Shown here piece after piece: positions 8,803 through 11,800 of a DNA stretch of 64,000 bases. Each line of letters begins with the position of its first letter. The first letter of the stretch is position 1. The notes beneath the pieces are model-generated. The model ran no database searches. It saw only the letters and a program-made list of their open reading frames with translations, and was not told where the DNA came from. The stretch is taken from NCBI GenBank assembly GCA_964539505.1, contig CAZIJS010000002.1:3313-67312 (forward strand), given 5' to 3'. The position numbers and the translations under genes are program-made. The stretch comes from an uncultured Myxococcales bacterium (GTDB lineage: Bacteria; Myxococcota_A; Polyangia; HGW-17; SLPX01).

Positions 8803-11800
8803 TCATTCCGACACTGAGTTGAAGAAGATGTCTCCCACGACTCCATCGGCTCTCGTGTCCACCCAGACACCGTAGGCGCCACCCTGTCCGTCCGCTGCAA
8901 GGCAGGGCGAGAAAGACTCGGCTGCTCCGGATGGATCCTGGTCCAGTCGGATGTCTGTTGGCTGGAAGTTGAGCCCGCCATCCAGAGAGAAGTTGAGGAA
9001 GATGTCGCGCAGACCGTTTCTGTCGTCGGCCCAGAGGGTGAACACCTTGGCTCCTGCGGAGGCCAGGCGGATTTCCGAAACGAGACCTGCTGCGGGAGAG
9101 GAGGCCCTGTGGGACTGGAAGGTCGCACCGCCGTCGAAGGAGGATGCCACCTGGACCCCCGGAAGTCCCTCCCGCCAGTCCTGCCATGCCACCTGGACCG
9201 ACTGGCCCTGGCCAAGGGAGATTTGTGGGGCAAAGGAGTCTGCGTCGCCCTTGTCGGTGTCGAGGCGCATGTCTGAAACAAGCCAGGTTGCCGCGTTGTC
9301 TGAAGACCGATTCAAATAGATGTCAGAGTAAGAGCCGCGACGCAGGTCCTGCCACACCACATACACATGCCCCGCCGCATCGGCGGCGATTTGCGGATAT
9401 TTGGAAGCCGACTGGCCCGCGGTGTCACTGTCCAGCCGAAGGTCCGACGGCAAGAACGTCTGGCCGTCTGTGGTTGCATTCACGTAGATGTCGAGCGCCC
9501 CGTCCCTTGCGTCGGACCAGACCACGATGGCTTTTCCGGATGCTCCAAAGGCCGTTCTGGGTAACGTGGCATAGGCATCGGCCGGATCGGTGGGTTGTTG
9601 ATTCACCCTGGTCGGAGATGTGAAAGTGGCGCCGTAGTCCGTGGAAAAAGCCATCAAGATGTTGCGCTGGGCTGTCGTGGTGCCCGATCCTTCGATGAAG
9701 TCTTCCCAGACCACGGCGACCGTTCCATTGCCGTCTGACGCGAGGTCCAGGTTGAGAGAGTCCACGGTACCGCTGTCGAGCCTGGTTTCTGCTTCGAATT
9801 CCTGGCCGCATCCAGCCGAGCGCCGAAGATAGATGTCTCGGTCGGTGCCGGTCCGAAAGTCAGCCCAGGCGACATAGACCCATCCACTCGCATCCAGGAT
9901 GACTCTGGGCTTGACGCTGTCGCTGCTACCACCGTCCAACCTGGTGTCCTGGATCCATGTTTGGCCGCCGTCCGTCGAACAGGTGTGATAAATGTCGGCA
10001 TTTCCATTGCGCCGGTCCAGCCAGACCACGTGGATTTCGTCTCCAGATGCCGCCATGTCCACCTGGATGGAATTGGCTGCACCAGGCGGGCTGGTGGCAT
10101 CGAGCCGTATGTCCGTGGCATCGGCAGTGACGCATCCTGTGGGATCGATGGTGCCGTTACAATCGTTGTCGATACCGTCGCACACCTCTGGTTCGGGGTC
10201 GATGTTGCCCGAACAGACTAGGTGGCCGGACTCGCATCGAGTGGTCCCATACTCGCAGGGGCCCACATTGGTGACGCCGCATCGAGCACCCTCGTCGGTG
10301 AGGTTGTTGTCTGCGATGCCGTCGCAGTCATTGTCCAGGCCGTCACATGTCTCGGGCTGCGGTCCGATGTCACCCTGGCAGACCACATGTCCGTTTTCGC
10401 AGACAGTGGTCCCCACCTGGCACGCACCAAGATTGGTCCCGCAGAGATCGCCTGTGTCGAAGGTTGCCTCATCGGTTTGTCCATTGCAGTCGTTGTCGAC
10501 TCCGTCACAGACCTCTGGGAGGGGATCGATGCTGCCGCTGCAAACGAGATGGCCAGACGAACAGGTCCAGGTTCCTGTCTGGCAGGCACCTTCGTTGGTT
10601 CCGCAGGTTCCACCAGTGTCAGTGAGGTTGTCGTCTGCGACACCGTCGCAGTCATTGTCGAGGCCGTCGCAGATTTCGATTCCGTTGTTGGTCGGGCTGC
10701 AGGGATATTCGCAGCCATCGTTTGGATCGAGGTTTATGTCCACGAAACCATCCTCGCAGGAAACCATGACACAGTGATTGGCTTGGCAGTCCATGGCTGC
10801 ATGGGGCCGGGAACAACTGTTGCCGCAGGCGCCACAGTTGTCCGGATCGGAGGATACGTCCACGTTGTCGTCGATGAGGCCGTTGCAGTCGTTGTCGATG
10901 CCGTCGCAGATTTCGACTCCGTTGTTGGTTGGGCTGCAGGGATATTCGCAACCGTCGCTTTCATCACCATTGAGGTCCAGGAAGCCTTCGTGGCAGGAGT
11001 CGATGCGACATTGGCCCGCCCGGCAGACAGACTCGGCGTTTGTGAGTGCGCAGTGATGGCCGCAGCTTCCGCAGTTGTCCGGATCGCTGCTCAGATCGAA
11101 GTCTTCGTCGGTTTGTCCGTCACAGTCGTTGTCGATCTCATCACAGAGTTCTTCTCCCCCGGCCGAGGGCAGGCATTGATACTCACAGCCCGTGTCTGGG
11201 TCACCGTCCAGGTCGTAGGTGCCTGGGGCGCATCCATAGAATTGGCAGACACCATCCTGGCAGGCAGTAAAGGCCCCTGGTCTGATGCAGGAATTTTTGC
11301 AACGCCCGCAATTTTCCTGATCCGTCTTGAGATCGAAGATCTCGTCGGTAAGACCGTTGCAGTCGTTGTCGATGCCGTCACAGATCTCCAGGCCTCCGTT
11401 GGTGGGACTGCATTGGCCCGAGTCTGGTTCCACCGTTCCTCCATCTGCCTGCTTTGGCATGTATCCGTCGATGTCTGGGAATTGATAGGGATCGAACTGG
11501 CAGCCGGACCAGATCGTGGCCAACCCGGTCAGGAGCAACAGCCCCATCAGGGTTTTTCCAGATCTGGTTCGGGGTTCGACCCGGGACGTCGGGCCCTGGT
11601 TGCGGGCTGCTGGTCGGAGTTGGGCGGCCCAGGTAGGTCTCTTGCGCAGGATCAGTCCTACCAACCCGAGGAGCAGCATCCAGACCGATCCGCTGTCTGT
11701 GGGGCCAGTCGAGCCGCAGGAACAACCACCCGCCCCGGTGGCCATGACTTTCTGGCCTGCGACGCCCGAGACGTAGCCTTCGGGGTCGATGCATTGACCA

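Follow-up and report, generated by a model that had tools for sequence, protein, structure and literature searches.

An internal MYXO-CTERM-type tag followed by a lipoprotein-type signal in a conserved composite gene of an uncultured Myxococcales bacterium

The gene and its internal cassette

The DNA analyzed here (the window) is a stretch of 64,000 nucleotides from an uncultured Myxococcales bacterium (contig CAZIJS010000002.1 of assembly GCA_964539505.1, positions 3,313 to 67,312 of the forward strand). It carries, on the minus strand, a long gene in the middle of which a sorting tag of the MYXO-CTERM type is followed in frame by a signal peptide of the lipoprotein type. According to the listing and translation of open reading frames (ORFs), this ORF spans 8803..14175 and consists of 1790 codons with a GTG start; residue numbers given below refer to it. 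In the public record, the gene call starts at Met19 (window position 14121), which results in a precursor of 1772 amino acids (8803..14121, minus strand; P0001, 100% identical), while the stop-to-stop ORF reaches the GTG at 14175.

Inspection of the translation places a Sec-type signal peptide, MKKILSLLCLASLLLPGGHA, after Met19 (14062..14121, minus strand). The N-terminal half of the protein (N-half) contains a DUF4114 domain (13450..13707, minus strand; Pfam PF13448, 42.1 bits) and, from there up to the MYXO-CTERM-type tag, MopE-type Cys-rich repeats. The corresponding Pfam family, PF11617, reaches 183.4 bits over 13 stretches of the protein, and both scores exceed the gathering cut-off of 27. 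At the DNA level, tandem repeats of about 54 codons are found at window positions 12716-13418, with BLASTN self-matches of 72-76% at offsets of 162 and 324 nt; these are the MopE-type Cys repeat units.

The C-terminal half (C-half) is predicted to be a mature lipoprotein corresponding to residues 892-1790 (8806..11502, minus strand). Its start, C-QFDPY, is conserved and it consists of MopE-type Cys repeats and a propeller-like BNR/Asp-box domain with sialidase-like repeats (about 8806-10125, minus strand; Pfam BNR_2, PF13088, and alignment A1). On the query protein, BNR_2 matches the C-terminus weakly (20.7 bits vs. a cut-off of 31.4), and on the homologue P0037 it scores 35.7 bits.

Between the two halves lies a cassette of three elements. 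The first is the MYXO-CTERM-type tag GGCSCGSTGPTDSGSVWMLLLGLVGLILRKR (residues 816-846; 11638..11730, minus strand), which is composed of a GGCSC motif (residues 816-820), a spacer, the hydrophobic helix VWMLLLGLVGLIL (TM1, window 11647-11685), and the basic cluster RKR. When isolated as a segment of 48 residues, the tag matches NCBIfam family TIGR03901 (MYXO-CTERM) with 27.2 bits, the curated cut-off being 20. It ends at residue 846 of 1790 (47% of the length) and 944 residues follow. Because it thus lacks the C-terminal location of the family, we refer to it as an internal MYXO-CTERM-type tag and not as a canonical member.

The second element is a basic linker of 30 residues, PTWAAQLRPAARNQGPTSRVEPRTRSGKTL (residues 847-876; 11548..11637, minus strand), a putative cytoplasmic loop. 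Together with the RKR cluster (residues 844-876), it has a net charge of +8. In none of the frames did the codon-position GC content of these 30 codons point clearly to coding; the linker is too short and too rich in Arg, Pro, and Gly codons for this measure, which was not used further.

The third element, MGLLLLTGLATIWSGC, is a second hydrophobic helix (TM2, residues 877-892; 11500..11547, minus strand) with the features of a lipoprotein-type (type II) signal. The basic residues RTRSGK are located just upstream of Met877, and the helix ends with the lipobox IWSGC, in which Cys892 is encoded by 11500-11502. The PROSITE lipobox core, {DERK}(6)-[LIVMFWSTAG](2)-[LIVMFYSTAGCQ]-[AGS]-C (PS00013/PS51257), fits LTGLAT-IW-S-G-C, six uncharged residues preceding IWSGC. 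As Cys892 is internal, it does not lie at the usual distance of about 15-35 residues from the protein N-terminus; counted from Met877, it is residue 16. About 75 residues separate the MYXO-CTERM Cys from the lipobox Cys. The initial annotation of this DNA had described an internal MYXO-CTERM tag which is followed by a lipoprotein signal, and this description is borne out, with correct coordinates, by the translation, TIGR03901, and PROSITE; the interval which it had highlighted (11547-11640) is the linker with one flanking codon on each side.

A second assembly and a syntenic orthologue

The junction region was compared to two other contigs. A contig from ENA, with a MEGAHIT-style name, agrees with the window at every position over 10,463 bp (100% identity) and encodes the same protein. 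A contig of a metagenome-assembled genome (MAG) at NCBI differs from the window by 19 mismatches and one gap over 11.3 kb (99.8% nucleotide identity). Within the gene, this amounts to a single synonymous change; the junction is identical, including a run of five A residues (A5) close to the start codon of TM2.

A syntenic orthologue (protein P0002, locus L005) shows 70% sequence identity and is also a single fused gene. The tag is conserved, and so is the sequence after the lipobox (GCRFDPYQFADIDGYMP, with GC(Q/R)FDPYQF in common). Its linker has 17 residues and is unrelated to that of the query, so that the linker sequence is not conserved even at this degree of relatedness. The neighborhood is shared as well: the gene for a response regulator precedes the fused gene, and one for a DUF4215 protein follows it. 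In the window, the flanking genes are encoded at 6522-8774 and 14710-16797, both on the plus strand. A CheA-like kinase adjoins the response regulator; on the other flank is a protein of 750 amino acids with a weak match to DUF4215 and a possible lipobox, LWSGC.

Conservation among homologues

A search of 5.8 billion proteins resulted in 3720 relatives, and the cassette counts reported here cover the best 120 of the 3720. Most of these 120 are single proteins of 1700-2900 amino acids which cover 98-99% of the query. One fused homologue, P0037, is encoded on a 10.3-Mb contig of Sandaracinus amylolyticus. The cassette was counted by a rule which ignores Cys residues and requires a hydrophobic helix (TM1), a basic cluster, and a second hydrophobic helix (TM2). 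Of the 120 best homologues, 104 show this arrangement. A Cys is found 12-45 residues before the basic cluster in all but one of these hairpins (103 of 104), and a strict PROSITE-type lipobox is found at the end of TM2 in 92. Among the remaining 12, six have another Cys late in TM2 and most of the others have G-C just past TM2. Applied alone, the PROSITE pattern is unspecific in such Cys-rich proteins (602 matches outside the cassette), and for this reason the hydrophobic context was also required.

The properties of the cassette were analyzed for 95 proteins selected by their lipobox. Position −1 is occupied by Gly in 72, by Ala in 14, and by Ser in nine, the restriction to these three residues being imposed by the selection pattern and not an independent result. 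The consensus for positions +2 to +7 is D-V-D-P-Y-C. The loop between the helices is 11 residues long and carries a net charge of +5 (medians), and the cassette is located at about 49% of the protein length. At E <= 0.01, TIGR03901 is matched by 72 of the 95 internal tags and the related family TIGR03382 by 30; the internal tags shown individually have TIGR03901 scores like those of terminal tags.

We have hardly any doubt that this is a real, conserved architecture. As this family shows, the direct coupling of an internal tag to an internal lipoprotein signal is an old arrangement which is widespread and stable in Sandaracinaceae, Polyangiales, Kofleriaceae, and related lineages.

Fused and split loci

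Three relatives of about 1400 amino acids (P0075, P0088, and P0110) consist of the C-half only and have real N-terminal lipoprotein signals. Such a stand-alone C-half starts, for example, with MTRLGLRVFVLLLGLGSGLGLLGFSGC-KLDPYD, and the general form is M...[hydrophobic]..GC(R/K)(I/L)DPY. The TM2-GCQFDPY region of the query corresponds to these signals in position and in motif (a hydrophobic stretch, [GAS]-C, and x-x-D-P-Y). At loci L001 and L002, the gene directly upstream of the C-half codes for DUF4114 and MopE repeats, then for a MYXO-CTERM-type tag and a short tail. The end of a split upstream gene reads ...GDGGCQCRAG...LLLLAALGLWWRRRRVGASG...VVP, followed by the stop codon. The tag of L001 matches TIGR03901 with 27.1 bits, and that of L002 had no match to this family at E <= 0.01. 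In both cases, the upstream gene overlaps the start of the lipoprotein gene by ATGA; in the split relatives, the upstream gene extends 8-22 residues beyond the Arg cluster and stops at this ATGA overlap. The cassette is thus equivalent to the tag of a first protein joined to the signal peptide of a second.

The distribution of the two forms was analyzed with one genome per species (GTDB collection), and an alignment of the BNR domain (A1) resulted in 71 loci. At least 23 of the 71 loci, from distinct contigs, are fused, with tag and lipobox signal in one frame without a stop (24 were detected, of which two are identical copies). Their MAGs are labelled Sandaracinaceae, Polyangiales, Kofleriaceae, and others. 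The split form is found at a minimum of 13 of the 71 loci, with the tag in another frame and a stop which overlaps the lipoprotein ATG or is found just before it; many of the corresponding MAGs are labelled Myxococcaceae. About 34 of the 71 are outside these two classes, which reflects contig edges, other architectures, and imperfect heuristics (the known split locus L009 was missed).

Fused and split loci differ in the region ahead of the ATG. All 13 split loci have a match resembling a Shine-Dalgarno (SD) sequence (GGAGGTG in 12, a match of 5 nt in one). Among the 23 fused loci, a single one has an SD match, which is weak (4 nt). In a neighbor-joining tree of the BNR domain, computed without support values, split forms occupy at least three positions, and the split loci L008, L009, and L012 fall inside the clade of fused genes to which the query belongs; this unsupported tree suggests repeated fusion or fission. 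In the evolution of this family, the fused form is interchangeable with two translationally coupled genes.

Several relatives of the BNR domain have no cassette (L016, L017, L018, L046, L056, L061, L068, L071, and L074). These loci are from MAGs labelled Nitrospirota, Poribacteria, Aminicenantes, Anaerolineales, Kuenenia, Planctomycetota, and Rickettsiales; either the BNR proteins truly stand alone there or the contigs were mis-binned.

Proposed processing and alternative explanations

We consider it probable that the gene is a conserved composite precursor of two Cys-rich surface proteins which would be cut into two lipid-anchored products. The sequences themselves show the architecture, its conservation, its equivalence to split gene pairs, and the lack of an internal ribosome-binding site in fused forms; from them we infer how the precursor is placed in the membrane, that it is cut twice and lipidated, and where its products end up. 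The Sec-type signal MKKILSLLCLASLLLPGGHA would begin export of the N-half, and TM1 would halt its transfer across the inner membrane. The basic loop would remain in the cytoplasm according to the positive-inside rule. TM2 would be oriented like a signal peptide, with its N-terminus inside and its C-terminus outside, and would re-initiate export, now of the C-half. The myxosortase MrtX would cut at the GGCSC motif and free the N-half; Cys892 would be lipidated by Lgt and LspA, whose cut immediately ahead of this residue would free the C-half. The N-half (about 780 residues) and the C-half lipoprotein (about 900 residues) would result in a 1:1 ratio, separately lipid-anchored at the surface, and a membrane hairpin of about 70 residues would be left as a by-product to be degraded. 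With respect to the occurrence of both cuts, we lean slightly towards an affirmative answer. The more far-reaching notion of a “self-sorting polyprotein”, in which two lipoprotein-type machineries would cut one precursor into a C-terminally and an N-terminally anchored protein at 1:1, is in our opinion evenly balanced. No paper on a lipoprotein polyprotein was found, which is weak evidence given an incomplete coverage of the literature.

Four points weigh against this interpretation. When applied to the whole ORF of 1790 amino acids, TIGR03901 scores 19.0 bits, just below the cut-off of 20. The lipobox Cys usually also opens the motif C-x-x-D-P-Y-C, so that its conservation could in part be structural. 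At this locus, the fused and the split state are one homopolymer base apart (a single A of the A5 run). Finally, the literature yielded no earlier case of Lgt/LspA acting on an internal lipobox, although this again counts for little because of the incomplete coverage.

It is possible, if distinctly less probable than processing into two products, that the cassette is an uncleaved or half-cleaved hairpin of two helices. The uncleaved version would be a single chain in the inner membrane with both large domains in the periplasm; in the half-cleaved version, only MrtX or only LspA would cut, and one half would stay tethered by the hairpin. The elements of such a topology are consistent with one another, namely the signal peptide, the pair of hydrophobic helices, and the basic loop with its net charge of +8, and the missing precedent for an internal lipobox also speaks for it. 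A plain anchor needs neither Cys, yet the upstream Cys and the strict lipobox are nearly always retained in the hairpins of the best homologues (103 and 92 of the 104, respectively), and half of the 12 hairpins without a strict lipobox have another Cys in TM2. The similarity in score of individually shown internal tags to terminal ones also argues against a mere anchor, as do the split orthologues, which yield two separate, independently sorted proteins. We favor processing over a passive anchor because nearly every fused form retains both Cys motifs, because the lipobox Cys persists where its partner Cys is absent (the second Cys of C-x-x-D-P-Y-C is missing and the first is kept in the query, in P0002, and in the stand-alone C-halves P0075, P0088, and P0110), and because the fused form is exchanged with gene pairs which necessarily give two proteins.

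The C-half might instead be produced by internal initiation at the ATG at 11545-11547, in which case the locus would act as two genes without a stop between them. This in-frame ATG is found exactly at the start of the signal-like helix, and the initial annotation had suggested mapping an internal start there. The query has no SD match in the 15 nt upstream of this ATG, whereas all 13 split relatives have one, and several fused homologues lack any in-frame start codon before TM2. In addition, the full-length product would keep the N-half attached to a whole C-half. Independent translation of the C-half in fused forms is thus unlikely, and as an explanation of the locus we find it quite improbable.

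An error of sequencing or assembly has a slightly lower probability still. If the true length of the A5 run at 11553-11557 were four, there would be two genes: in GAAAAACCCTGATG (11545..11557, minus strand), removal of one A creates an in-frame TGA directly over the ATG, as a TGATG stop/start overlap, and overlapping stop and start codons are what the split relatives use. However, two assemblies from strains that differ slightly share this run, fusion is also the state of the nearest orthologues, and the strong SD site of the split forms is missing here. Given the identical junction in the second assembly, we regard an assembly error as unsupported.

The weakest explanation, a recent and possibly deleterious stop-loss in this genome alone, with the TGG codon of Trp849 (11629-11631) as the former stop, is refuted by the comparison of orthologues: a single substitution separates TGG from TGA and from TAG, and canonical tags may end right past the basic cluster (e.g., in the ORF at 19845..22547), but the syntenic orthologue with 70% identity is fused through a different linker and has no Trp there, the fusion is common to 104 of the 120 best homologues and to at least 23 species, and the split relatives stop at the ATGA overlap and not beside the Arg cluster.

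The initial annotation had left open whether the locus represents a recent stop-loss fusion of two genes, an error of sequencing or assembly, or a genuine composite protein whose sorting signal is internal. It is the last of these which is favored by the conservation evidence. The proposed origin from two genes holds in the evolutionary sense, as the halves are separate adjacent genes in other genomes. A comparison of orthologous loci, which had been suggested there, reveals an uninterrupted architecture with a mid-protein tag in the syntenic orthologue and in 104 of the best 120 homologues, which is the outcome that the initial annotation had named as refuting its fusion proposal. Neither the recent stop-loss, nor the reading of TGG as a lost stop, nor the error, nor the internal start is supported by the comparisons described above.

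Relation to known sorting systems

MYXO-CTERM proteins are exported by Sec; the helix of the tag holds them in the inner membrane with the Arg cluster in the cytoplasm (PMC11980579). Lipidation is thought to occur on the invariant Cys, and cleavage by MrtX is dependent on the Cys residues (PMC11980579). Lgt is the leading candidate for the enzyme which lipidates the tag (PMC11980579). With this system, for which TraA is the model (PMC11980579; preprint 10.1101/2023.06.07.544157), the query shares the Cys motif, the transmembrane helix, and the Arg/Lys cluster, as well as an N-terminal signal peptide, the character of a Cys-rich, adhesin-like myxobacterial protein, and an isolated tag which scores above the TIGR03901 cut-off. 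It differs in that its tag is found at 47% of the length with about 940 residues after it; cleavage at this tag is a prediction.

Internal MYXO-CTERM tags have been described “in rare cases”, among them MXAN_5598, for which an origin by gene fusion and processing were proposed (PMC11980579). According to Guo, Haft and Wall 2025, mid-protein tags can still function (PMC11980579). In MXAN_5598 from Myxococcus xanthus, the tag, described as atypical, is located between an adhesin region and an outer membrane beta-barrel/OmpA region (PMC11980579). As in the query, the internal tag is attributed to fusion of a tagged surface protein with a downstream partner (it resembles TraA plus TraB), and both have split counterparts in which the ORFs overlap (traA/traB for MXAN_5598). 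In the query, by contrast, the partner is a lipoprotein, and a signal with a lipobox comes after the tag. The paper describes no second helix or signal for MXAN_5598, and it calls such tags rare, whereas the cassette of the query is present in 104 of the best 120 homologues.

To the lipoprotein pathway (Lgt, LspA, and the lipobox), the query is similar in its basic n-region, its hydrophobic h-region, and the sequence I-W-S-G-C. It is dissimilar in that the signal is internal, with an n-region which is tethered to the preceding transmembrane helix; processing is putative.

An experimental precedent for processing of a sortase-type tag in mid-protein is also reported, an ArtA substrate of Haloferax volcanii with a tripartite sorting structure that is not C-terminal (Abdul Halim et al. 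2017, as cited in PMC11980579). As far as that citation describes it, this substrate is archaeal, belongs to the PGF-CTERM/archaeosortase system, and is exported by Tat, unlike the query. We know of no second signal peptide after its tag. FbcH of Bradyrhizobium japonicum is reportedly a cytochrome b/c1 precursor which is split at an internal signal peptide. It resembles the scheme proposed here in that one gene gives two membrane or periplasmic proteins by means of an internal signal peptide which re-initiates export and undergoes cleavage. It differs by the use of type I signal peptidase, by the lack of lipidation and of a C-terminal sorting tag, and by the unrelated proteins involved.

A lipobox-coupled internal tag in a large family appears to be new relative to the published internal tags. 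The differences are the lipoprotein signal directly after the tag, its being the majority state among the best homologues listed, and the equivalence of split and fused forms with gain or loss of the SD sequence. MYXO-CTERM sorting has only recently been linked to its protease, and internal tags have been regarded as rare oddities. For annotation, this means that such genes should not be flagged as frameshifts or fusions and should not be given an internal start. The fused forms provide “Rosetta stone” evidence that the MYXO-CTERM protein and the neighboring lipoprotein act as a pair, and they are a compact substrate for testing the function of mid-chain tags and lipoboxes and the order of the two pathways. 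If the notion of a self-sorting polyprotein is true, the repeated change between a fused and a split state, which involves at least three families of partner pairs, would mark obligate two-protein surface complexes, and the proximity of the tag Cys and the lipobox Cys would permit a direct test of Lgt as the enzyme which lipidates MYXO-CTERM proteins.

Other partner pairs and the remainder of the window

The window encodes a second, unfused pair of this kind. A vWA-like/MopE protein of 900 amino acids (19845..22547, minus strand; Pfam) has a terminal MYXO-CTERM tag, GGGGCAC...WILLLSTILALVWRRRRR, directly followed by the stop codon (TIGR03901, 25.1 bits, residues 866-900). Because this canonical terminal tag is found in the same window, the organism appears to use MYXO-CTERM sorting. 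In the 64 kb examined, there is thus more than one tagged protein, and the query also has the N-terminal signal peptide expected of such proteins. No match to the CPBP-type (myxosortase-like) family was found among the nine large ORFs which were scanned in the 64-kb window.

A lipoprotein of 594 amino acids, MKRNRLSAAWVAVLYLGSAAC, with MopE repeats and an FGE-sulfatase-like end is encoded at 22557..24341 (minus strand). Its sequence is 41% identical to the C-half of P0035, a fused protein, and the 900-residue protein aligns with the N-half of P0035, tag included. In P0035 and its relatives, the cassette joins an N-half with a vWA-like start (for which Pfam reports only MopE repeats) to a MopE/FGE-sulfatase C-half. 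The pair in the window (19845-24341) is unfused and its gene order is opposite to that of the fused P0035, the gene for the 900-residue protein being ten bases downstream of the lipoprotein gene.

A further combination is represented by P0113 (2054 amino acids), in which MopE repeats are fused to a TraB/OmpA-like C-half across an internal Cys-TM-basic segment; this TraB/OmpA type resembles MXAN_5598. Its TM2 ends with APLYA-Q, an AxA-like site as used by type I signal peptidase, and not with a lipobox. From this type I-like end, we conclude that the internal signal keeps the type which suits the downstream partner.

Elsewhere in the window are a 2390-residue ORF with many TPR repeats (52356-59528, minus strand) and genes for a Ser/Thr kinase with PEGA (41342..43621), Rho (17897..19240), RecG (48324..50666), and an OPT transporter (60522..62645).

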